The notes below the pieces were generated by a model. It did not search any database and was not told the DNA's origin. It saw only the letters and a program-made list of their open reading frames with translations. DNA of 64,000 nucleotides from a virus (taxonomy: Duplodnaviria > Heunggongvirae > Uroviricota > Caudoviricetes), in the IMG/VR virus record IMGVR_UViG_3300029996_000255; one strand, 5' to 3'. Below, in pieces: positions 8,620 to 43,202 of this stretch. A program made the translations under genes and the position numbers. Every line of letters starts with the position of its first letter. The stretch's first letter is position 1.

Positions 8620-11600
8620 TTATCTAAATGTCAACATATTAAGTGAATTACGTCCTAACACTTGACCCAATGTACCTTCCTGTACTGCTTTTAAAAACCT
8701 CTTATCACTTACCATCTGTTTCATAAAATCTTCATAATTTTTAACATTAGGTAATGATAATGTTACATCTCCAAATTCTACATCAACCTTATTAGCCAAG
8801 TTATTCGATATATTAGGAATATCGGGCAACTTAGCACCTAAGTTATCCATATACATATTCGGAGTAATAATACCTTTAGAAAGATTCCAAAGCTTTTCTA
8901 CTTGGTCTGCATTAAATACCATATCACCAGCATCTAACTTGCGAAGTGTACCATACTTCTTAGAGAAGATAACTTCTGAACCAAGACCTTTTTCATCTGT
9001 GCGGTGTATACCTGCTGTTGCTGATTTAGTACCATTTTTATAACCATGAGATTTGAGCTGGTCTAACATCCAAATATTCTGATCTGAACTACCATAATAT
9101 TCTCCGTCACCACCCATAGCAGAGTAGTAATCAGCTCTTGCACCAAATGAACTGTCTATGTCATTATATTTTAATCTATCCACAATACTTGAATCCACTT
9201 CGAGTAAGTCCTTCGGATAATCGTCTTCCAAATGATAGAACCAATCACCCCAAGAGCCACCATCATCAGATGAGCCACTATCAGAGTTATCCCAATTATC
9301 AGACCAATCATTAGAACCACCAGACGAACCACCGCCATCAGAATAACCACCATCGGTATTAGCATTCTGTTCTGCCTGCTGTCTTGCAATCTCATCAGCA
9401 ACTCTTTGTGCTTCATCATTACTATTCTTCAATAAACCTTGTACAGCAGCATTAATGTCACCACAAACCTTATTAATAGCATTGTTGCCTTCAACAAATT
9501 TGTTACTAAAGTCACCTAATACACTATTAATACCATTTGTTATGTTGTTGGCATTTAGACTCCATATAGAAGACATAGATTCACTAAGCTTATAACCATA
9601 ATTCTCAGCAGTAGTAGTAATAGTCTGTGAGATATTAGAAGCATTTTCGTTAGACTGGTCAATAATTTCCTGCATAGTTATATCAAACGAATCAAGTCGC
9701 TCATCGAGCCACGTTTTTGTAGTATCGGCAAGATTATCTAAAATAGCTTGCGTATCGCTTATAAGCTTTTCATACTCAGTATCTTTCAAATCATCTTTAG
9801 CAGTATTAATTTGGTCTTTAAGCTGCTGGATATTCTTCTTACCTTCCTCAGAATTATCTCCTTGATAAGCAGAGTATTGCTTCTCCAAAGCATTAAGAGC
9901 CTTTGTTTTTTCAACGATAGATTTTTCATAATCATAAGCATCCTTTTGCTGACTCATAAGATCTTTATATTTCTGGATAACTTCATCAAGTTTATCAAGA
10001 AATGTATCATAACCTTCTTGAACCAAATCCTTAAGGGCTTCTTTTTCAGATATACTTGAATTTATAGCATCCTGTTGTGCCTTAATAAGTTCTTGCTTCC
10101 TATCCAGCAATTCCTTATCATAAGGATCTTTAGTCAACTCTTCATCAATCTTAAGTATCTCGTCCTTATAAGCTTTTGCCTGATTAAGATATAATTGATA
10201 CTTCTGTGCGATTAATGCTTGTGCAGCCTTACCATTGTCATTTATATTACCATTGTCGTCAGTAATATCTTCATCCTTTAGTAAGTCAACAAGGAACTGA
10301 GTTTCGTCTATAAGATTGCTGACATCATCTCTAGTCCTATCGAAAGCATCCCAATTAATCTGTCTTATCGCATTATCATACTCAACTAATGCCTTTTTAG
10401 CATCATATATACTTGAAGTACAATCATCTATGGCAGACTGCATAGAATACCAATCCTCAGATTCAGCTTCAATCTTGCCAGATGCCATAGCAGAATTAAG
10501 TGCCTTTGTAAGTGCGTCTCTTTCCTGTTCAAGCTTTTCAAGATTCTTTTGTTCCTGTTCCATCATAGAATTATTAAGCAGAGTAGAAGCAAACCAGCCC
10601 TGTTCTTCTAAGAAGTCATTATCCTTGCTATATAAATCCTTAATAGAATTTACTTTCCCAAGAACTTCTTCAAACTGTGATTGAATATTATCGAATCTAC
10701 TCTTAGCAAGCTGTCTTATCTCAATGTTTAATGACTGTACAGAGTCAGCAGCATCTTGAGCCTTATCATATAAATCCTGACAATCTGAAATAGCGTCTTT
10801 AAGGTCATCGTCATAGACAGTTTCTATATTAAATGAACCATTTGCAATCTGATCTTTGTAATATCCGTCAAGGTCATATGAATTGAATCTATCCATATAG
10901 AAGTCATAAGCATCTGACTGTGCGTTAATCTCTGATAACAATGTTTCCATAGAATCGGAGAGGGCATTATTACGATTAAGCCATGTACGTGTTGTATCAG
11001 ATACTTTATTCTTTAAGCGGTCATAGGCTTTAGAGATTTTGGATAAGAGACGTTCTACCCAGTTGAAGTCCTGTGGCGATGGTTCGGAGGATGAATCAGA
11101 TGAACCACTGGAAGATGAGGAATCTTTACCGAGTGACTGCCAATCAGTTGTAATAGATAAATCAGGTGCATTATTTTTAAATGTTTCTTGAAGACGTTTC
11201 CATGCATAATTATATTCATTTACATAATTAAGAATCTTTTCTTTATCCTTTTCTTGAGAAGCCTTAATTTCCTGATGTAGGTTATCCATCATTTTCGCAC
11301 CAGCAAACCCTGTTTTTAATGGATTGCTTTTTTGATTTAATGGTGAATCTTCATTGTCTTGAACACTCATCATGCCTGTTTCAGCATCTTTTACTATCTT
11401 AAATGCTGTAAGCTGATTTTCAAAATATTTAGACCACAAATTACCAAGCTTGGATACTAATTGTGCTTCACAACCAGCTTTTGCTTCAGCTAAATTTTTC
11501 CATTCCTTCCAATCATTTCCATAGAAACTTGTAAGCATATTTTGAAGCTTTTCATTACCTGTTACAACTTGATTCCAAAAATCATTAGTATAAATATACT

Positions 11601-14247
11601 TATTTTGTTCTGATATTTTATACGCTTCAGCATCATCATTATAGGCTTGTTCTAATAATGCGAACAATTCTTCCGAACTCAATAATCCGTTTCTGAACTG
11701 TTTAACCGACTCATTCAACTCAGGAAATGCTTTAGCAATTGAATCCAAAGTAGAAGATGATAATCTGTTTGTATTTTGCAACTCATCTTGTACAGATTTA
11801 AGTAAATCAGCGTGTGTTTCAAGTTCAGATAAACTATCTCCAATTGAACCATCTGCCGTAAGTTTAAAACTTGTATTATCAAATATCTGAGATATCTTAT
11901 TGGCATCAGATTCAAATTTAGAAATTATTTTATCGTATGAATCTTGTGAGAGTGAACCTTCTTCTACCTTCTTCTGAAGATTACTTTGTACTTCTGATAA
12001 CTTTGCCTTTGCCAATTCTTGATATGAATTTGCAGCATCATAATTAGTCGAAGCTAAATATTTTGTTGCATCAGCTTCAGTTGTGATACTTTCAACAGTA
12101 GAAGCTAAATTAGCAAGTGCTTGTTGTTTCATATCCTCAATACGAGCTTGAGTAAGTTTATCTAAGGCTTCTTGGTCGAGAGTAAATGCACCAGACTCCA
12201 TATCAATGTAATCGAGCCAATTATCACCTAATGCGATAACGGATTGCATTGTATCAATTGAAATATTTCCATTACTGTTATATTCAGAAACAGCAGAAGA
12301 GAGCGTAGAATAAGCAGATTGAATTTCATCCAATTGAGAATTTAGCTTACTTAATGTTGACGGGGCGTTATCACTCCCCATATCGAATAATTTAGTTTCT
12401 TTGAAAGTGTTTACCTGTTTAGCATAATTTTCTCGTGCTTTAGCAGCACTATTAGCAGAAGATGCAATTTCTTTCCAATTGTCAATTTCTTCTTGAGTAT
12501 TTACGGAATGTTCTTTAAACCATGAATCCCAATCAAAATCAGGTTCTTTCTTTTTTGCTTCTTCTATAATGTTGTTATACTGTTGAGATATATTATCAGC
12601 TACATCATAACCAAGACCTTTTTTTAAAGAATCTGCATCAGTACCAATATAATCAGCAATTTTTTTAATGTAATCATCAATTGCTTGCTTATCTTTTGAT
12701 ACATCGCCCATATTATTAGGATCAATTGCCAATAGAGACTTATAAGCATTAGAAATACCTTCTTTATTATTCTCGATACCATCAATAATTTTTTGTACAA
12801 ATTTACTATTAATATCAGAATCTTTATTGAAAGTGCCAGCGGCTGCTTCAGTTAAGGCATTATCAATTAAGGAACTTATTTGATTTATTTGTTCATCATT
12901 CAAATTATCATAATCTGAATTATATACAAAATAAGCATTTGCTTTAGTCTTAATTCCTTTCATTGCCTCGTCAACTTCTGCCTGATAAGTTGCTAAATCA
13001 GCTTTCATATTCTGAATGATAGTAGTAACTTCTTGGTCAGTGCTATCGGTATCTAATCCATATGTCTTTAATAAACTTCTAAAAACAGTATCCGAACCTA
13101 TAGAGCCAGAGTAATTTCTTAAATCCTTAATAGATAAATTTGTGGCTTTTTCAAGATAAGATATCTTTTGAGTTGTGGATAAGCTTTTAACTGTTGATTT
13201 ATCAGAATTAAATGTGAACGCAGATTTAAAGGCATCTTTTATGCCAGTCTTTGATTCATTTTTATAATTCTTGACTACATTAGTATTCTCCTTATCACTG
13301 CCACTTATAACACTAGCAGCGGCTGCTTTCTGTTCATCCTTATATGCTTTTGTTAAAGCCTCAACATTACCCTTTAAGGTTAATATTGCAGTACCTTCAG
13401 AAGTATGTCCTGCTATTAAAGAAGGATAAATATCAGCAATCTGGTTACAAATATCTTGATATTTTTTATACTCATCAGTTGTAAGTGAAACATTATTACC
13501 TAATTCATCAACACCCTTTGATAAAGTTTCATAATCATCTTTTATATTATTGATGGTCTTTTTGTGCGATTCAAGAGTCTTCAAACTATCATTATATGAT
13601 GTAACCATATCATCTACGGCTTTTTTCATATTTTCGGCACTATTTATTATATTGGAAATACCTTTTATAATGAATGAAGCAATAGCAGAAGCTATAGCAC
13701 CTATGACCATATTTAAGGCAGTAGTAGCAATTGATAATGCAATTGTCTTTAATTTTGCAATACCAAGACTCTTGATATATCCACCAAGTCCAGCATTTGC
13801 ACCATTAAGACTTGTAAGATAATTACCAAGTTTCATATTATGAGAAGCAACAACTTCAGCAAAAGCATTACTCTCTTTTACAGAACTCTTTAAGAGACTG
13901 TTATATTCTTTAATATTTGCATTAATACCTTGAAAACTGAAAGACTGTTTTGCAATGTTCTCATAATTCTGCTTGGTAATAAGTTCGTTAATAGATTCCC
14001 TTTTAAGTACATCATTCTTTTTAATGTATTCCTCAAGACCATTTACTTTTGAATACTTACCATCTTCAAAAGTTTCAGTTAATACCTTCTGAAGCTGAAT
14101 AGTATCACCTTTAGCATTTTTAATAGCTTTGCGTAACTCATCTATTTTATCTTTACTTAAATTAGTAAGTTTTTCAACCTCGGTAAAATTTTTTGTTCCA
14201 CCTAACTTATCAGTAATACCCCAGTTATCAGCTAGTATTTTTCCTAT
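8620..14247 (-). CDS. Tape measure protein, exon 2 (1875 aa)
   Basis: The 1738-aa track ORF is open 137 codons further upstream (IGKILADNWGITDKLGG...) with no ATG; helical TMP character; C-terminal GYKNGT...TDEKGLGSE motif. Confidence 0.85.
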   Translation of the reverse strand: MGKILADNWGITDKLGGTKNFTEVEKLTNLSKDKIDELRKAIKNAKGDTIQLQKVLTETFEDGKYSKVNGLEEYIKKNDVLKRESINELITKQNYENIAKQSFSFQGINANIKEYNSLLKSSVKESNAFAEVVASHNMKLGNYLTSLNGANAGLGGYIKSLGIAKLKTIALSIATTALNMVIGAIASAIASFIIKGISNIINSAENMKKAVDDMVTSYNDSLKTLESHKKTINNIKDDYETLSKGVDELGNNVSLTTDEYKKYQDICNQIADIYPSLIAGHTSEGTAILTLKGNVEALTKAYKDEQKAAAASVISGSDKENTNVVKNYKNESKTGIKDAFKSAFTFNSDKSTVKSLSTTQKISYLEKATNLSIKDLRNYSGSIGSDTVFRSLLKTYGLDTDSTDQEVTTIIQNMKADLATYQAEVDEAMKGIKTKANAYFVYNSDYDNLNDEQINQISSLIDNALTEAAAGTFNKDSDINSKFVQKIIDGIENNKEGISNAYKSLLAIDPNNMGDVSKDKQAIDDYIKKIADYIGTDADSLKKGLGYDVADNISQQYNNIIEEAKKKEPDFDWDSWFKEHSVNTQEEIDNWKEIASSANSAAKARENYAKQVNTFKETKLFDMGSDNAPSTLSKLNSQLDEIQSAYSTLSSAVSEYNSNGNISIDTMQSVIALGDNWLDYIDMESGAFTLDQEALDKLTQARIEDMKQQALANLASTVESITTEADATKYLASTNYDAANSYQELAKAKLSEVQSNLQKKVEEGSLSQDSYDKIISKFESDANKISQIFDNTSFKLTADGSIGDSLSELETHADLLKSVQDELQNTNRLSSSTLDSIAKAFPELNESVKQFRNGLLSSEELFALLEQAYNDDAEAYKISEQNKYIYTNDFWNQVVTGNEKLQNMLTSFYGNDWKEWKNLAEAKAGCEAQLVSKLGNLWSKYFENQLTAFKIVKDAETGMMSVQDNEDSPLNQKSNPLKTGFAGAKMMDNLHQEIKASQEKDKEKILNYVNEYNYAWKRLQETFKNNAPDLSITTDWQSLGKDSSSSSGSSDSSSEPSPQDFNWVERLLSKISKAYDRLKNKVSDTTRTWLNRNNALSDSMETLLSEINAQSDAYDFYMDRFNSYDLDGYYKDQIANGSFNIETVYDDDLKDAISDCQDLYDKAQDAADSVQSLNIEIRQLAKSRFDNIQSQFEEVLGKVNSIKDLYSKDNDFLEEQGWFASTLLNNSMMEQEQKNLEKLEQERDALTKALNSAMASGKIEAESEDWYSMQSAIDDCTSSIYDAKKALVEYDNAIRQINWDAFDRTRDDVSNLIDETQFLVDLLKDEDITDDNGNINDNGKAAQALIAQKYQLYLNQAKAYKDEILKIDEELTKDPYDKELLDRKQELIKAQQDAINSSISEKEALKDLVQEGYDTFLDKLDEVIQKYKDLMSQQKDAYDYEKSIVEKTKALNALEKQYSAYQGDNSEEGKKNIQQLKDQINTAKDDLKDTEYEKLISDTQAILDNLADTTKTWLDERLDSFDITMQEIIDQSNENASNISQTITTTAENYGYKLSESMSSIWSLNANNITNGINSVLGDFSNKFVEGNNAINKVCGDINAAVQGLLKNSNDEAQRVADEIARQQAEQNANTDGGYSDGGGSSGGSNDWSDNWDNSDSGSSDDGGSWGDWFYHLEDDYPKDLLEVDSSIVDRLKYNDIDSSFGARADYYSAMGGDGEYYGSSDQNIWMLDQLKSHGYKNGTKSATAGIHRTDEKGLGSEVIFSKKYGTLRKLDAGDMVFNADQVEKLWNLSKGIITPNMYMDNLGAKLPDIPNISNNLANKVDVEFGDVTLSLPNVKNYEDFMKQMVSDKRFLKAVQEGTLGQVLGRNSLNMLTFR

Positions 14248-14267
14248 CGTTAATAAATACTTTGATA

Positions 14268-14296
14268 TTGTGAGATATGTTAATTAGTGTTATTAT
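14268..14296 (+). promoter_or_regulatory. Sigma-A-type promoter for intron cargo genes
   Basis: TTGTGA-N17-TATTAT with extended -10 TG, ~30 nt upstream of SD GAGGAG and ATG 14329. Confidence 0.55.
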
Positions 14297-14328
14297 ATTC
14301 ATATACAATTGTGAGAGGAGATTAATAT

Positions 14329-14907
14329 ATGAGATATTGTTTACGATGTTGTGATATTTGTTCGGACACATCTGAAGAATATGAATTATGTCCAGAAAGT
14401 TGTGGTACTTGTGGTGCAACAGGTGAAATGCTTAAAGAGGATGGTGTAACAGGCGAACAATATGAACAAATGACCGAAGATGAAAAGGATGAATACGAAG
14501 TTAAAATCCGTTTAGAAGTTGAAAATTCACCATATTTTAACGAAGAACTTTATAGAAAATATAGCATGGGTGATCCAGATTTTTATTATAACTTTCGTTA
14601 TGATGAATATACACGCTTAACAGGTAAAAAAGCTGGTCAAAAGCTAACTCCCGAAGAAGAAGCCGAAGAAAAACGCAAATTTGAGGAATCTATGCGTGGA
14701 GCAGAAGCGGATTACTATTTCAATCTTGGCAAACAAAAACGTGAAGAACAAGAAAATGCTAATAAACCTAAGTGCCCAACTTGCGGTTCTACAAACATTA
14801 AAAAGATGAGTGGAATAGAACGTGGAGCTTCAATAGCTGCATTTGGTATCTTTAGTAAGAAAATTAATAAGACTTTCAAGTGCTGTAATTGCGGTTATAC
14901 ATGGTGA
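14329..14907 (+). CDS. Intron cargo: zinc-ribbon protein with short hydrophobic hairpin
   Basis: 192 aa; N-terminal Cys cluster, C-terminal KCPTCGS...GASIAAFGIFS...KCCNCGYTW; SD GAGGAG. Confidence 0.8.
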   Translation: MRYCLRCCDICSDTSEEYELCPESCGTCGATGEMLKEDGVTGEQYEQMTEDEKDEYEVKIRLEVENSPYFNEELYRKYSMGDPDFYYNFRYDEYTRLTGKKAGQKLTPEEEAEEKRKFEESMRGAEADYYFNLGKQKREEQENANKPKCPTCGSTNIKKMSGIERGASIAAFGIFSKKINKTFKCCNCGYTW

Positions 14908-14924
14908 TAGGGAGGTGCAATTTT

Positions 14925-15053
14925 ATGCCAACAAATAATAACAACAAAGACAAAAAATCCACAGATACCAAACCAAAGGGTGAAGTAAGAAATATTAATA
15001 CCACAACCAAAGGGTTATTCGATTATCATAAAGAAAAGAAAGATAAAAAATAG
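14925..15053 (+). CDS. Intron cargo: small Lys/Asn/Thr-rich peptide (42 aa)
   Basis: SD GGAGGTG, MPTNNNNKDKKSTDTKPKGEVRNINTTTKGLFDYHKEKKDKK*. Confidence 0.55.
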   Translation: MPTNNNNKDKKSTDTKPKGEVRNINTTTKGLFDYHKEKKDKK

Positions 15054-15172
15054 TCACTTACTTTTCTTAAACACGTTAAACATATTTTCAAATAGACCAG
15101 GAGTAGTGGTATTTAAATTCTTGATTTCTCCAACAGGTTTGTTTGTTTTATGCTTTTTAGGAGATTTTTTAC

Positions 15173-15700
15173 ATGAAGACAAAAGAATCACTTCCTTCCT
15201 ATGAACTTAGTTTATACGAAAAACTATATGAAAAAGAAATCACATATAGAAACAATTTTAGCGATAAAGCATATAAGAGTATCACTGTGATAATATCGTT
15301 ACTTGGTGCAAATGTATGGCTTGTTACAAAATTCATCTCTATTTTTAACTCTGAATGTTGTTTTATGAAATCAATAAACGGAATTCTTATTGCGGTCAGT
15401 ATAGTTCTAACTTGTATGGTTGTAATTGGATTCTTCAATGTTTTATATAATTATAAAGAAACAAGGCAGAAACCAGAAGATATACAAAAGCTTTTAGAAG
15501 AATATAAGTCACTAAATGATATTGATAGCAATGTAATATATCTTATGAACAAGTCATTGATAGTATCTTATGCAGAAGCTGCGGTTAAGACATACAATGA
15601 GACACAAAAGCATACTGGATTATTTAAGAAGGTGTATCTTTGGATTATTATTGAAGTTATTGTCTGTGCTGTTTTATTCTTTTTAGAGATATTAGTTTAA
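15173..15700 (+). CDS. Intron cargo: membrane protein (3 predicted TM segments)
   Basis: 175 aa with hydrophobic segments at ~36-56, ~68-90 and the C-terminus; SD AGGAG. Confidence 0.75.
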   Translation: MKTKESLPSYELSLYEKLYEKEITYRNNFSDKAYKSITVIISLLGANVWLVTKFISIFNSECCFMKSINGILIAVSIVLTCMVVIGFFNVLYNYKETRQKPEDIQKLLEEYKSLNDIDSNVIYLMNKSLIVSYAEAAVKTYNETQKHTGLFKKVYLWIIIEVIVCAVLFFLEILV

Positions 15701-15827
15701 TGCAACTTCCCTGAGCCATTACAATATTTCGTAGAATAAGATAAATACACCTAAACATATGTTCCTAATAGTAAAATCTTCCTCAAAGTAGTATGATAGT
15801 GTTATCAAATTACGGAGGGGTATCACA

Positions 15828-16055
15828 ATGTACGCATTTAAAATTAAAAACAAAGATGGTAAAGTTCAAGAGTATGAACATATCAAAAAAGTATATTATG
15901 GACATAAGGGTATATCCGAACATACTCTTGAAGGTGATAAAATATTCAATCATCAATACTCTACGGGATATGATTTACATTTATATTCTGAGAATAATGC
16001 ATTTACCATCGCTAGGTCAGAAATTTCAGTTATAGAAGTGGTAAAAGAAAATTAA
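15828..16055 (+). CDS. Intron cargo: small hypothetical protein (75 aa)
   Basis: SD GGAGG, MYAFKIKNKDGKVQEYEH..., beta-strand-like pattern. Confidence 0.7.
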   Translation: MYAFKIKNKDGKVQEYEHIKKVYYGHKGISEHTLEGDKIFNHQYSTGYDLHLYSENNAFTIARSEISVIEVVKEN

Positions 16056-16192
16056 TTACCATACCCGAATTCAATTATCACTTCTGTATTGAGTTCGGGT
16101 ATTTTATTAAGATCAAGAGCCTTTATATATTCAATAGCTGGTTTTAATTCCTCTAATTCGTTGATTTTAATTTTAATATTTAAATTTGTCAT
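16052..16192 (-). CDS. Intron cargo: small hypothetical protein (46 aa)
   Basis: SD GAGGT, MTNLNIKIKINELEELKPAIEYIKALDLNKIPELNTEVIIEFGYGN*; tail-to-tail overlap with 15828-16055. Confidence 0.5.
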   Translation of the reverse strand: MTNLNIKIKINELEELKPAIEYIKALDLNKIPELNTEVIIEFGYGN

Positions 16193-16266
16193 TATTTTTA
16201 CCTCACATCATAATAATTTAGGTTATTCCGTCCAAATAAATAGATATAATAAAAGAGTAGTCAATT

Positions 16267-16443
16267 ATGCTAAAAATTCATTATTGTCCAAACTGTCACA
16301 GAGTTACATATACACATTATCTTACAAATGTATGTCGAGTATGTAATTGTGATTGTATAAAACTCGATATTGACTTTAAAGAATTCTTCTCAATGAATGA
16401 AGTTGAAAGAAAAGAATATATATCGAAACACATTGGCTTATAG
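16267..16443 (+). CDS. Intron cargo: small zinc-finger protein (58 aa)
   Basis: MLKIHYCPNCHRVTYTHYLTNVCRVCNCDCIKLDIDFKEFFSMNEVERKEYISKHIGL*; two CxxC motifs. Confidence 0.6.
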   Translation: MLKIHYCPNCHRVTYTHYLTNVCRVCNCDCIKLDIDFKEFFSMNEVERKEYISKHIGL

Positions 16444-16660
16444 AATACAAACTGCTGTTCTGGATTGTATTTAATTTTGTACAATGGTAAAATATAGACA
16501 TTGGAGAAACAACATGGATGTGTGCCATAACACTCTATAACCGAAGGTTGTCCCAATGTCTATTTTTGTGGCATTCGGAATAAATATCTGCCCATTCTGG
16601 GCTAAAAGAATATTCCCTACTTATTTATATTCTTACTAAGAAGGGAGGTGAAAATACATA

Positions 16661-16846
16661 TTGAATATATTATATGCCGAGATAATCGGTTCAATAATTC
16701 TTGGAATATGTTATGTAATATGCCACATAGCTTCAATCGTTGGCAAATGTTACATTGCTAAAATCTGCAAAGACTACAGTGATTCCAAAACTGGAAGTTT
16801 AGCAGAAATGACTTCTAAGGATATCAATATCAATCTTCATCATTAA
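16661..16846 (+). CDS. Intron cargo: small single-TM protein (61 aa; type I toxin/holin-like architecture)
   Basis: Strong SD GGGAGGTG, TTG start, hydrophobic N-terminal helix, followed by a terminator. Confidence 0.6.
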   Translation: MNILYAEIIGSIILGICYVICHIASIVGKCYIAKICKDYSDSKTGSLAEMTSKDININLHH

Positions 16847-16886
16847 TGTTCTTCATTTATATATTTATTCTCCTTTATTTCATCAG

Positions 16887-16916
16887 TAGGGCTGTCTCAC
16901 GACAGTCCTATTTTGT
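16887..16916 (+). terminator. Plus-strand intrinsic terminator closing the cargo region
   Basis: TAGGGCTGTC-TCAC-GACAGTCCTA followed by TTTTGT; no U-run on the minus strand. Confidence 0.65.
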
Positions 16917-17435
16917 TATTCTCTTTTATGTTGATTATACTTAATATACCTCTCACAATATATTAATTATGGTGTAAAGTGTATCAACTATCACCTTCAT
17001 TTTAAGTACACCTCTTATTCTCCCCTGAGCACACATTAACGATTTCATTAACCGTCTAGTCCTTATGCTCGATGATCGTAGTCTTTGCAAAAATGTTTAA
17101 GACTGTCGGATGCGGATTTACCTTGTTTTAGTGATATTACCATACCTCATGCTTTCACATTCGCCGCTATAACCTTTCGTATTATAGTTTGGTTACTAAA
17201 ACAAACTTTTTTGGTTTTCCCGTACTATGTTGAATTCATAGTAACTGAAAGGATTTCTTTACAAACCTCGCTATTATGCCATATTGACTCATAGCCACGA
17301 TTAAGTGCCAGTCATTCTCTACTATTTTACAATTAGAGTCCTTGCTTATTATACAATAAGTTCGCACACCTCACGGTTAAACTCTACGGTAGCTAGGAAA
17401 GGAGAATTGTTAATAAAATTTATTAACCTTATCAA

Positions 17436-20417
17436 ACCACCGCTTTTATTTGAAGCAATAATAGTTGCAATTGCTCCTAGTATGGTTGGAAGATGCTTTT
17501 CTACTAATTTAAAAAATTTAGAAGCACCTTCAGTTAAATCTGTGGTAAAATCTAAAACAGATTTAACAGTTGTAGTATCAATTACATTGTACCAAAATTC
17601 TTGTGCTCTATTTTGAAGTTGCTGAAATTTTCCATCAACACTATCTAAATAAGCATTTAATTCGTTTTCTGCCGAGCCTTTGGAATTTTGAGCATCCTCA
17701 TATACTGAACGAAGCATATCTCCATTTTGAAGAATTGAAGCCGCAATATTACTACGATTTTTACCTGCTATAGTCTCCAATAATAAGTTAAGATTATTTG
17801 TTCCTAATTCTTTATCTTTCTTGACTATTTCATCGTATAAATCTGCCAATCCTTGCATGATTTCATACGTACTCTTGTAATTTCCGTTAGAATCAAAAAT
17901 ATCCAAGCCTTTACCGTCTTTTGTTGCAGCGGAAGTTGCAGATTGGATAGTATCTCTCAATTTTGACGCTGTAGTTATCATGCCATCTGTTTCTTCACCA
18001 AGATCTTCAAGCTCTTGTTTTGCTTGAGTAGTACCCACGAGTCTAAGTGAAATAGTACGAAGACCTGCTCCTACCTTAGACGGATCTTGAGTGATTGCGT
18101 TGCCAGCCGTTGTAAGGGATACAGCTTCATTTAAGTCATTATTAGCAGTTACTAATGCACTAGCTGAATCTTTAAGAGCTGTTGCCAATCCGTCAGTTGA
18201 GATGCTGTAATTATTACCGATATTATTTAAAACATCAATTATGTCCATTTTATCAAGGTCTTTATAAGCCTGACTCATAGACACAAGTGAGTCGGTTGCC
18301 TCATCTATTCCTTCAAATTCAGATACGTTAAGTAAGATATTTGCATCTTTAGCTGATTTAGCAGCTTGATCTATCGATTCACCCAAGCGCATCCAATCTG
18401 CTGTGGAATTTTGTATCTGTTTCGCAGTAGTTCCAACTGCGTCTGCTGTATCGAATGTAGTATCTTGATATCTCTTTAAACTTTGAACAGATTCATTGGA
18501 TACTTTTCTCATTTCAGTAAGAGCAGTATCTAATTGCCTAACAATACTAACTCCTTCTTTACCATATCTTATAAAGTCATTAAATCCAAAATATGTACCA
18601 ATAGCACCAGCGACACCATACCACGCTTTTTCCTTAATAACTGACCACATACTTTTGCCGCCACGACCAGCCTCAATTTCAGCATTGACTATTTGCATAA
18701 TCTTTCCGTGAATAACATCTAATGATGCACTTGGATTACCAGATTTAATTTCAGCATAGTAAGCTTTTATCTGATTCTTAGCTTCTCGTGACATTCCAGA
18801 ATGCTCTTTAAGAATATTATTGATTTTATCTAATTCTTTTTGAGCAGATATAAGGCTATATCCCTTTTCGGCAGCCGACATATTCTGAACAGCGGTAATA
18901 TTTTCTTTGATAAGTTTTTCTTGTTTATCTAGTTTACCAAGTTCTTCTTCAGTCACCAATTCAGGATGTTTTTTTAAATTATTCAGAATATCTTCATATT
19001 GTTTAACAGCTTCTTTAACAGCATCAACTCGCTTCTTATAATCATCGCTTGTCCAACCACCATTCTCAAATCGAGCAATAGTTGCATCATAGCCAGATGT
19101 TTTCTTGGTATAAGATTGGAGGCGAGTATCATACTTCGAGAGATCAACATTAGACACTTCTTTATCAGCATTAACAATTTTCTCTTTAGCTTCAGCATTC
19201 TCTTTAGCTTTCTGAGTATTCTGTTCTAATACATTATTCTCTTCTTTGATTGAATTAGTAGCAGTCTCTACAGATGCAGAAACATCTTTATCAGGAAATA
19301 CGTCTTTCATGTCCTTATTCTTAACACTCTTCAACGCAACACTTGTCTTTTCAGCTGAGTTAGATGCAGCCTTACCAAAGTTGTCTATTGCATCTTGCGC
19401 AGATTTAAAGGTCTGAGTAACAGAAGCACCTGCGTTTTCAACGTCAGTTAATTTCTTAGTAATTGTTACGAATTCACTACTGTCAACTTTTATAGAATAT
19501 TCATCACCAAGATTTAAACTATTTTTTATTTTTTGCGCCTTGTCTAATGTTTCTTGATATGTAAGAGCAGGAGAGGTTTCACGACCAAAATTCTCTAATG
19601 CTGTTTCTAATTTGTCTACACCATTTGTTACAGTCTTAAAACGCTGTTCAAAAATATTACCATCAGCATCGACTTTTGCGGAAAATGATTTCCATGCGCC
19701 ATCAGCATCTTTTATTTTTGCACTTACCTTTACAAGACCATCAACAAGCTCTGTGTTTACAGTTTCACCAAGAATTGTATATCCAGAATTTGATAATTTT
19801 TCATTAATTCTATTAGGAGAGTAATTTAAGAAATCTTCTTCTGATATTTTTCTTCGTTTTGCGTATCTATCCTTTTTAGGTGGACTAGGTGGGTTTGTAT
19901 TTCCAGATGAAATATTCGTTTTCTGTCCAATCTTACTCTGTGCATCAGCCAACTTCTCAGCTTCTTTGGCAGCATCTTGATATGCATTACTAATATTCTC
20001 CACTTGTTTGACAGCACCACTCGTATTGCCCATGTTTTTATTAACATTGAGAATATTCTGACTCAGTTCAGAAAGCGACTTGTCAATATTCTGGATAGAA
20101 GAGAGTAGTGTCTTCGTACCAGAATCATCTACTTTACCAAAAGCTTTACTTAAGCTCTGTACTTCTGATACAATACTTGATAACTCTTTTGATAAATTCT
20201 CAAACTGTTTAAAATCACCCGTTCCTTTTCCAAGAGAGTCAAGCATTTTATCAAGTTTTTGAATAGCACTTTCTAATGTCTTTGTATCTATATCTAATTT
20301 TACTTTTCGGTCTTCATTGGTGAAATTATTAATTTCTCCTTCGGCAACCTTAATTCGTTTTTTTAAATCTTCAATGTCAATACGAATTTGAGCTTGCCAA
20401 TTTGCTATTCCTGACAT
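17436..20417 (-). CDS. Tape measure protein, exon 1 (994 aa; unspliced ORF runs on to stop at 17349)
   Basis: TP901-type core: LDTALTEMRKVS, ADWMRLG, IIDVLNNIGNNYSIST, VGAGLRTISLRL, KSTYEIMQGLA. Confidence 0.9.
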
Positions 20418-39739: not shown

Positions 39740-40380
39740 AGCATAAAGCACTAACTAGCTGATATTGGACTGTACACATCCAGTTTATAAATTAGACACA
39801 CTAGGTATCCATGCTTTTCAAAATCACTTTAATCAGATTTACTCGCTAACCAACGCACGAGAAGGAGATTACTACCTGTGTCACCCAAAATATATTGCGC
39901 TTATATAGTGACACTCCATATTTATCTGTCTTTCCAGATGTCAGACCGCTCAGCAGTCATTCGCTATTTCTATCTCAAAAACTCAGATACGAATTTAGCG
40001 ATAAATCCATACCTTACAAAACGACTAATAGAAGTTGTGTTTTACTTATTAAAGGTTCTCATTAACGTAGAGAGGCACGATCACTTCTATGGTTGATATT
40101 GACCGTTTTAGGACTTACAATGCTATATGAATAGTAAATGCCAAAATATGTTAATCGTCTACTAAGGCAAGACCTTTCCATAACACCGCCAATGAGCAGT
40201 AGCAATGGGAAGTTTTAGACCATTCCAAAGGTCAATAATTTCGCAAACCGACCTTTATATTTATGTCACATATCGGTCAGTGACAGCTCACTTGTAAAAA
40301 TCTATCAACGGATTGACAGACCGCCCTCACTTCTTTTGGATGTGAGCAGCTTGTATAACTTATCTATGATGGGCGGTGTA
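39740..40380 (-). ncRNA. Unassigned structured non-coding RNA region
   Basis: No credible ORF, GC above background, several nested complementary segments, directly upstream of tRNA-Met. Confidence 0.45.
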
Positions 40381-40567
40381 TCCATCATCTCAGGTACTTC
40401 GAAGAGTGTGTAGAGAACCATTTTCTACCTATAGATAAGTTGTTGTATTTATTTATTCTTTTGTTTTAAGAATGCATATTTTTGAATTTGTCAAGGGTTA
40501 GATGAAAGCTTCATCGGGATTGTCAGTGTCTTCACGAATTACATACATCTGAGTGGTTTCGGAAGGA

Positions 40568-43101: not shown

Positions 43102-43202
43102 TGACTTTAATAGGATTCGAACCTATATCCATTCCGTCAGTGGCTTTCACACTGGTGTCTGCGGTTTTACCTTGGATGCTTTGACCATTAAGCTATAAAG
43201 TC
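43102..43202 (-). ncRNA. tRNA-like RNA with enlarged anticodon arm
   Basis: Perfect GACTTTA/TAAAGTC acceptor, GCTT-AATGGTC-AAAGC D-arm, ATAGG-TTCGAAT-CCTAT T-arm; ~40-nt structured insert in place of the anticodon loop. Confidence 0.7.

Follow-up and report, generated by a model that had tools for sequence, protein, structure and literature searches.

What divides the tape-measure gene of this phage? The window, by which we mean the whole stretch of 64,000 nucleotides (nt) analyzed from virus record IMGVR_UViG_3300029996_000255 (Caudoviricetes), contains two minus-strand open reading frames (ORFs; 20417-17349 and 13836-8620) that belong to the same tape-measure family and match consecutive positions of its profile. 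The interval between the two coding parts was read in an earlier note, made from the sequence alone, as a group I intron carrying genes other than homing endonucleases, and comparative evidence now strongly supports this view. We consider it probable that the intron is spliced in cis from the late transcript, restoring a tape-measure protein of 2,869 amino acids (aa), and that the region 3' of its catalytic core is an exchangeable accessory-gene island. Since the intron has no Rfam match and its core folds no better than shuffled sequences, the case is built on comparison with relatives, which are cited by locus number (L005 and so on) where they have to be told apart.

A tape-measure gene in two halves

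Exon 1 starts at an ATG (20417) preceded by a strong Shine-Dalgarno (SD) sequence and its last base is the U at 17436, after codon 994. Joined to exon 2 it gives a single open frame with zero internal stops. Searches with the exon-1 end returned 76 loci. In the 12 closest loci with both halves, similarity runs up to the final residue of exon 1 and resumes at the initial residue of exon 2, after an interval of 1,921-5,494 nt. Loci further away, at about 70-80% identity, are interrupted after the same codon and carry about ten unrelated 5' sequences, each with a guide complementary to its own exon end, and the joined junctions are collinear and gap-free against uninterrupted distant tape-measure proteins. 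A further 85 loci comprised 76 interrupted, six open and three unjudgeable cases; all six open ones are only 47-58% identical. No close intron-free allele was present among the 13 loci found with exon 2 or among these 85, and the intron appears to be fixed in the clade.

The first in-frame ATG of the second half (13836) lies 137 codons past the 3' splice site and lacks an SD-like sequence, as do the first in-frame starts at all 28 distinct 3' ends. In ten relatives, exon-2 codons 1-137 differ by 17-26 synonymous against 11-19 non-synonymous changes, and synonymous changes equal or outnumber non-synonymous ones in each of the ten. The earlier note had invoked splicing to account for these start-less codons, and their purifying type of change is indeed hard to explain otherwise. 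In 12 of the 28 distinct 3' ends the terminal G of the intron also completes an in-frame ATG or TTG codon that lacks an SD sequence, which may be a consequence of the P9.0 pairing or a route to weak separate initiation. In L041 and L111 the exon-2 frame opens directly after a stop codon whose G is the terminal G.

Splice-site pairings and catalytic core

The boundaries, P1 with its U.G wobble, P10, the terminal G and the joined frame are all as the earlier note described them. The 3' end of exon 1, GCGGUGGU (17443-17436), is the 5' strand of P1 and pairs with GCUACCGU (17393-17386) of the internal guide sequence, which places the U.G pair at the splice site. The adjoining guide segment UUUCCUA (17400-17394) pairs as P10 with UAGGAAA (14246-14240) at positions 2-8 of exon 2. 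The U.G pair is present in 11 of 11 aligned cores and three of the eight P1 pairs show two-sided changes. The commonest ribozyme class (L013:9187-9260 and 18 other loci) has C.A, not U.G, at its 5' splice site, and L014 has a mismatch there, U opposite C.

A motif from the P5 region retrieved further members of the window's ribozyme class, and 11 class members picked for diversity made up the core alignment. Across the 11 cores 90.4% of cells are paired versus 35-44% in slid controls, and two-sided (compensatory) changes occur in 24 of 49 pairs from P1 to P8, a count reached by none of 500 shuffles; both kinds of control lean in the structure's favor, as it was drawn from these same 11 sequences. 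Single-sequence folding was no better than for shuffles (z of -1.1 for the core and -0.85 for the part after P7).

Covariation backs P5abc, P6, P7 (GAGCA/UGCUC) and P8 much as the earlier note had drawn them. Its P3 (UCCUU/AAGGA) had to be abandoned, aligning in only three of the 11 cores with zero two-sided changes; the supported P3 is UAGU (17324-17321) with ACUA (17060-17057), which occurs among relatives as UAGU/ACUA, UAAC/GUUA, CAGU/ACUG, UGCU/AGCA and UCAC/GUGA. The CGGG part of its P4 (UACGGG/UCCGCA) was retained, and the outer two pairs, which fail in all rows, were replaced by a UG directly 3' of P3. P4 is accordingly drawn as UG (17314-17313) plus CGGG (17222-17219) against UCCGCA (17116-17111), with about 90 nt of hairpins between its two parts. 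In 10 of 11 rows the conserved UG has a pairing partner in the CA that is invariant in the Q strand, a strand resembling the Rfam consensus, and L060 has an uninterrupted form of P4. Pairing is 100% in P4 and 95% in P6.

Variants of P7 among relatives are GAGCA/UGCUC, GAGUA/UACUC, GACUA/UAGUC and GAAUA/UAUUC, the consensus GACUA/UAGUC being that of L060, L102 and L111, and two-sided changes affect two of five pairs in P7 and three of five in P8. The guanosine-binding pair, the first of P7 after a bulged C (a bulge read from the sequence), is G-C in 10 of 11 rows; the eleventh, L110, is misaligned there because of its long P8. The P3-P7 pseudoknot and P8, a short hairpin (17057-17038), stand in canonical order. 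An extra bulged U appears to lie directly after the G-binding pair of P7 in the cores of L019, L042 and L014, about 250-330 nt into the intron.

Subgroups IA1 and IA2 are defined by P7.1/P7.2 between P7 and P3, and with only 5 nt between P7 (17066) and the 3' strand of P3 (17060) the window core would belong to neither. P5abc with a GNRA loop and a receptor-like P6 extension is an IC1-like trait; by its P5abc the core may resemble subgroup IC1 more than IA, and its split P4 is atypical. Judged from its predicted structure, the element is a real group I intron in every respect that can be assessed except a long P9.0.

How a distant 3' splice site may be reached

A peptide-motif rule, written after some junctions had already been seen, picked the exon-2 start in 41 of 43 cases, 37 of them following a G and the other four falling on a look-alike 18 nt upstream of the true start. 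These four were corrected by hand and seven more 3' sites were placed by hand. All 37 non-redundant inserts (967-6,965 nt) then end in G and 36 are stop-free when joined, the sole exception being L060, where there is a second insertion upstream. In the further locus set 30 of 36 picks follow G, and five of the misses are the same look-alike.

Cognate pairings were compared with non-cognate ones in 15 representatives, which are related and not independent, and were longer in P1 (6.1 versus 3.2 bp), P10 (7.6 versus 5.2 bp) and P9.0 (4.7 versus 2.7 bp; permutation p <= 1e-4). The true G ranked within the top three of all G sites in nine of the 15, and by energy the true 3' site of the window is tied second of 643. 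P9.0 is 5-8 bp long in 11 of the 15 representatives and 1 bp in the window class. A first automated search for P10, in which offsets and G-U pairs were allowed, was noisy and misplaced most distant classes.

Two additional contacts may compensate for the short P9.0 of the window class. The hairpin loop AUUGUGAGAGG, beside the core, is perfectly complementary over 11 nt to 14318-14308, which precedes the terminal G by 71 nt; the 11-mer has two copies in the window versus 0.03 expected. A loop match of 7-11 nt located 54-75 nt before the 3' site was present in 10 of 10 distinct class members versus 5 of 374 cargo windows, and no gene lies behind the hairpin-loop side. L091 carries a three-base compensatory block on both sides of this pairing, and in L103 following the loop match revealed an exon-2 start that is in frame and has a compensatory P10. 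The second contact is a duplex of UUCUCCUU, beside the guide, with GGGGAGAA just after P7, predicted in five of five class members tested and with one compensatory change (L103); it may stand in for the nearly absent P9.0. In the L013, L018 and L019 classes, GUUUGA lies 100-250 nt after P7 and could pair with UCAAAC 20-40 nt before the 3' site.

Cargo genes

The cargo of the window intron consists of seven small ORFs with ribosome-binding-site-like upstream sequences between 14329 and 16846, six antisense and one sense, which bears out the earlier count; six have homologues among the retrieved loci. None of these genes has a confident family in Pfam, PHROGs, PADLOC or NCBIfam. The 175-aa protein scores 0.94 in Atlas to a cluster in which 11% of members carry PF18967, a weak lead towards PycTM-like membrane effectors. 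The double zinc-ribbon gene nearest exon 2 is the last ORF in 25 of 37 introns, and in the window the hairpin loop has as its partner the intron-strand complement of this gene's SD sequence.

A comparison of cargo at the same site in related phages, which the earlier note had proposed, revealed widely different content. The 37 introns contain 219 ORFs in 89 clusters (102 sense, 117 antisense), with up to 11 ORFs per intron and none in L110, and the last ORF is antisense in 36 of 36 introns with ORFs. In 24 of 38 introns an antisense terminator-like site lies 470-550 nt from the intron start. Close relatives combine two variants of the ribozyme with three of the 3' end in all six possible ways, indicating recombination within the cargo.

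Cargo families were scanned with 91 representatives of 82 of the 89 clusters, seven short singletons being excluded. Matches were to GmrSD_N/NsnA-like (a cluster of 15), PemK/MazF-like, TIR/ThsB, ToxN/AbiQ, NYN, DUF3800, DUF3990 and HTH families, and most representatives had none. The GmrSD_N/NsnA-like gene (325-340 aa) is the commonest sense-strand cargo, found at L005:10336-11310 and in 14 other introns and not in the window. Pfam gave no match to homing endonucleases (GIY-YIG, HNH, LAGLIDADG, PD-(D/E)XK) in the 91 representatives or the window ORFs, in line with the earlier claim of non-endonuclease cargo, and no transposase or TnpB match (IS200/IS605 tnpA/tnpB) was obtained among the scanned cargo proteins. 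The earlier description of the intron as a neutral landing pad holds for the landing pad, as variable cargo and recombining modules support an exchangeable region. Neutrality is not supported, because the layout of the cargo is strictly ordered and its content includes defence-like and toxin genes.

Two convergent ORFs of the window intron (14925-15053, plus strand, and 15054-15191, minus strand) share a KPxGExxNxNTTTxGLF-like peptide, and the minus-strand ORF has matches outside the intron in L038, L039 and L059. Skipping-rope RNA is found in the window at 40360-40438 (minus strand), and in L018 a copy (12335-12415) lies within intron cargo.

Features of the interrupted tape-measure gene, its intron and the intron cargo (window coordinates)
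Feature	Position	Strand	Remarks
Tape-measure exon 1, 994 codons	17436..20417	-	TIGR01760 tape_meas_TP901, E 8e-22 at aa 628-988; phrog_4211
Tape-measure exon 2, 1,875 codons, begins IGKILADNWG	8620..14247	-	Conserved from residue 1 in 12 close loci
Group I intron, 3,188 nt, phase 0	14248..17435	-	From comparative structure, junction frame and pairings
Internal guide sequence	17386..17400	-	P10 part 17400-17394; P1 part 17393-17386; G of U.G at 17393
UUCUCCUU beside guide	17399..17406	-	Predicted pairing with GGGGAGAA (17025-17018)
P2 three-way junction with GNRA-capped hairpin (17376-17369)	17335..17385	-	100% of cells paired; two-sided changes in 2/5 and 2/2 pairs
P3 5' strand UAGU	17321..17324	-	Partner ACUA 17060-17057; two-sided changes in 4/4 pairs
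P4-P5 domain	17111..17314	-	Split P4; inserted hairpins 17312-17223; P5abc 17204-17123 with GAAA-capped P5b
P6	17080..17104	-	Two-sided changes in 3/4 pairs
P7 (GAGCA 17070-66 / UGCUC 17031-27), P3 3' strand, P8	17027..17070	-	P7 98% paired
P9 (17012-16971) and further hairpin (16966-16941)	16941..17012	-	Hairpin loop AUUGUGAGAGG complementary to 14318-14308
Intrinsic-terminator-like hairpin facing core	16885..16912	+	Would stop antisense cargo transcription before ribozyme
Cargo gene, 61 aa, hydrophobic N-terminal half	16661..16846	+	Homologues in 9 loci; no Pfam, PADLOC, NCBIfam or PHROG match
Cargo gene, 58 aa, CxxC..CxxC zinc-finger-like	16267..16443	+	Homologues in 15 loci
Cargo gene, 46 aa, sole sense-strand one	16052..16192	-	Convergent with 75-aa gene; homologues in 8 loci
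Cargo gene, 75 aa	15828..16055	+	Homologues in 5 loci
Cargo gene, 175 aa, three hydrophobic segments	15173..15700	+	24 homologues; no Pfam match
Putative cargo gene, 42 aa, strong SD	14925..15053	+	No homologue in fetched loci
Cargo gene, 192 aa, double zinc-ribbon family	14329..14907	+	522 homologues; phrog_3845, E 0.002
Sigma-70-like promoter (14268-14296, TG-extended) and SD of zinc-ribbon gene	14268..14318	+	Overall promoter count at chance level
Terminal G (omega-G)	14248	-	G at equivalent place in relatives

Proposed transcription and splicing, and alternative readings

A phage-encoded YonO-like polymerase would transcribe the late genes and read through the intron, cargo terminators included. 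The core would fold within the first 410 nt of the intron and an exogenous G would attack at 17436/17435. The 3' splice site, 2.8 kb away, would be drawn in by P10 together with the hairpin-loop pairing and the post-P7 pairing beside the guide, other ribozyme classes using their longer P9.0 for this, and the exons would then be ligated. Each cargo gene would have a promoter used by the polymerase of the host, plausibly during lysogeny. The last of these genes points away from exon 2, and a terminator would halt antisense RNA before it enters the core. The intron has no mobility gene, and its cargo likely changes by recombination between phages. An RdRP/YonO-related protein of 880-930 aa with a DxDGD motif is encoded in four of five related records, and YonO is described as transcribing the late genes of SPbeta as one operon with little pausing (PMC5467207).

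Several observations weigh against cis-splicing at the boundaries proposed here. Rfam scans of the window, at gathering thresholds and at E<=10, gave zero group I (RF00028) matches. Assignment of the 3' sites relied on a peptide motif or on visual inspection, with 11 placed manually, and boundaries are not directly fixable since no close intron-free allele was found among the loci above. The 1-bp P9.0 of the window is hardly distinctive, with 26 of 432 G sites scoring as well by pair count, and the combined P10 and P9.0 test fails for L018 and L091 (in L091 the guide was misplaced by the script). Part of the conservation of the loop's distal partner has another cause, in that this partner is also the complement of a ribosome-binding site. 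A long clamp from the core to the 3' end was rejected as a candidate, its duplex energies being no better than cargo background in most of 30 introns, the window included. Sense-strand terminator-like sites are present in 30 of 38 introns and would have to be read through for cis-splicing, and terminator read-through by YonO is not described in the available portions of PMC5467207.

A covariance-model search had been put forward in the earlier note as a check whose failure would refute the intron. Rfam found nothing here, yet this is uninformative, since it is also blind to the intron at the same site in all nine relatives scanned, including ones with textbook core motifs. The core had no DNA match among 50,697 annotated phage records. 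Other group I-like introns occur at different sites in the same tape-measure genes (L043:9008, L056:8066, L060:8870, L064:8876, L061:8603, L076:8509-8868 and L070:12733-13126); two of these do match RF00028, and several have a single ORF of 310-430 codons, endonuclease-like by eye in L060 and L064.

A rival reading is a bipartite intron spliced in trans, in which one RNA would comprise exon 1 and the core and end in the cargo, a second would carry the 3' piece and exon 2 from an internal promoter, and the loop/distal pairing, P9.0 and P10 would assemble them. Trans-spliced group I introns are known in organelles. Such an arrangement would suit the many introns with sense-strand terminator-like sites, the position of every catalytic part 5' of the cargo, the existence of specific long-range pairings, and the AGAGAAUA motif, which is enriched on the late strand and directly follows the core in several classes. 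We nevertheless regard it as decidedly improbable: the window's own intron has zero sense-strand terminator-like sites, cargo-poor versions of 1.0-1.3 kb exist (L110, L111), the halves are always adjacent and in order, and the invariably antisense last gene leaves no cargo promoter directed at exon 2. Cis-splicing is favored over trans because the YonO-like polymerase offers read-through and the late region upstream already has nine sense-strand terminator-like sites. A broader proposal, also improbable, is that clade-wide domesticated introns act as swappable defence and accessory islands whose hairpin loop catches the ribosome-binding-site complement of the last cargo gene to find the 3' site, letting the halves assemble as separate RNAs in a trans-spliced phage intron.

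It is very unlikely that the intron splices and is kept as a regulatory checkpoint or a device for swapping exon 2, and not as a cargo site. Of 136 pairs, 120 have exon-1 ends with an identity of 90% or more, and in 113 of those the exon-2 starts share less than 35%; antisense cargo RNA could also in principle block splicing in the lysogen. We rejected exon-2 shuffling as a special effect of the intron, as uninterrupted tape-measure proteins show the same drop at the same place (in the closest pairs, from 80-89% to 27-42%) and identity declines beyond the opposite edge of the conserved domain as well, and the terminator would shield the core from antisense RNA. Two separate tape-measure polypeptides with the RNA structure as a relic and the interval as an ordinary accessory-gene island, a reading that can draw on the missing Rfam match and the in-frame ATG or TTG at some terminal Gs, are scarcely credible given first starts without SD sequences, the 137 conserved start-less codons of the window class, guides that co-vary with exon-2 starts kilobases away, and a core that keeps compensatory changes.

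The octamer AGAGAATA occurs 12 times in the window (including 16917-16924) versus 5.4 expected, 11 times on the minus strand and mostly in intergenic positions, and also directly after the core in several intron classes. It is possibly a phage promoter or a regulator site.

Phage and host

The window includes the late region of a large tailed phage, with terminase and portal genes at 33.6-37 kb and tRNAs, integrase and endolysin further right; related contigs are about 150 kb long. One cargo protein has a 68%-identical homologue labelled Lachnospira pectinoschiza and the ribozyme motif is present in two Clostridia metagenome-assembled genomes, so the host is likely a gut clostridial bacterium. 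A tRNA-like element at 43102-43202 (minus strand; Rfam 52 bits) has an enlarged, branched anticodon arm without a normal anticodon and was not called by ARAGORN.

Comparison with known systems

In the mainly open-access articles searched, no account came up of phage group I introns with a multi-gene accessory cargo. Also newly seen are the match of the hairpin loop beside the core to a site some 70 nt ahead of the 3' splice site and the likely read-through of cargo terminators by a YonO-like polymerase. These introns would widen the range of phage group I introns, from parasites bearing a single endonuclease to gene islands of several kilobases that are fixed in an essential structural gene. 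On this reading, annotation wrongly divides the tape-measure genes of common gut phages in two, and Rfam overlooks these ribozymes. With most cargo families unannotated, the intron site may be a new hotspot in which accessory and defence genes could be recognized through guilt by location, and the long-range contacts may offer natural solutions, useful for RNA engineering, to the problem of a ribozyme finding a 3' splice site kilobases away.

Closest in location are TMP-IVS1, -IVS2 and -IVS3a/b, group I introns in tape-measure genes of Bacillus cereus-group prophages (PMC2504315). As in that system, an in-frame group I intron interrupts a prophage tape-measure gene, different introns are adapted to one site and some have no complete homing endonuclease gene. 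Unlike the present intron, they are of subgroups IA1/IA2, and accessory genes are not described in the available text (PMC2504315). The window intron differs in its P5abc, the 3' strand of P3 directly after P7, the split P4 and, among its relatives, a multi-gene, two-strand cargo of 1-7 kb.

The hexacoral mitochondrial intron ND5-717 is an obligatory group I intron whose peripheral element houses entire genes, two in anemones and 16 in mushroom corals (PMC6545197; PMC3073962). Its cargo lies in P8 and consists of the genome's own fixed essential genes, and its giant form is reported to back-splice (PMC6545197; PMC3073962). In the window intron the cargo lies 3' of P7/P9, is accessory, varies between close relatives and occupies both strands. 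With a short P8 and no cognate genes in it, the window intron works like the ND5-717 type and is not a member of it.

IStrons of Clostridium are group I introns fused to an IS605-like element (PMC3073962), and like them the window intron joins a Firmicute group I core to a 3'-terminal segment that spans kilobases and bears genes. It differs from IStrons in having no transposase or TnpB match among the scanned proteins, a fixed site and unrelated cargo families. Short introns with endonucleases are numerous in gut jumbo phages (PMC12880540). The present intron shares with endonuclease-bearing phage introns, such as T4 td and the Jug phage introns (PMC12880540), a self-splicing type of intron in an essential gene together with independently expressed coding sequence. 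Unlike T4 td and the Jug phage introns, it and its relatives have no endonuclease family match and carry up to 11 ORFs per intron.

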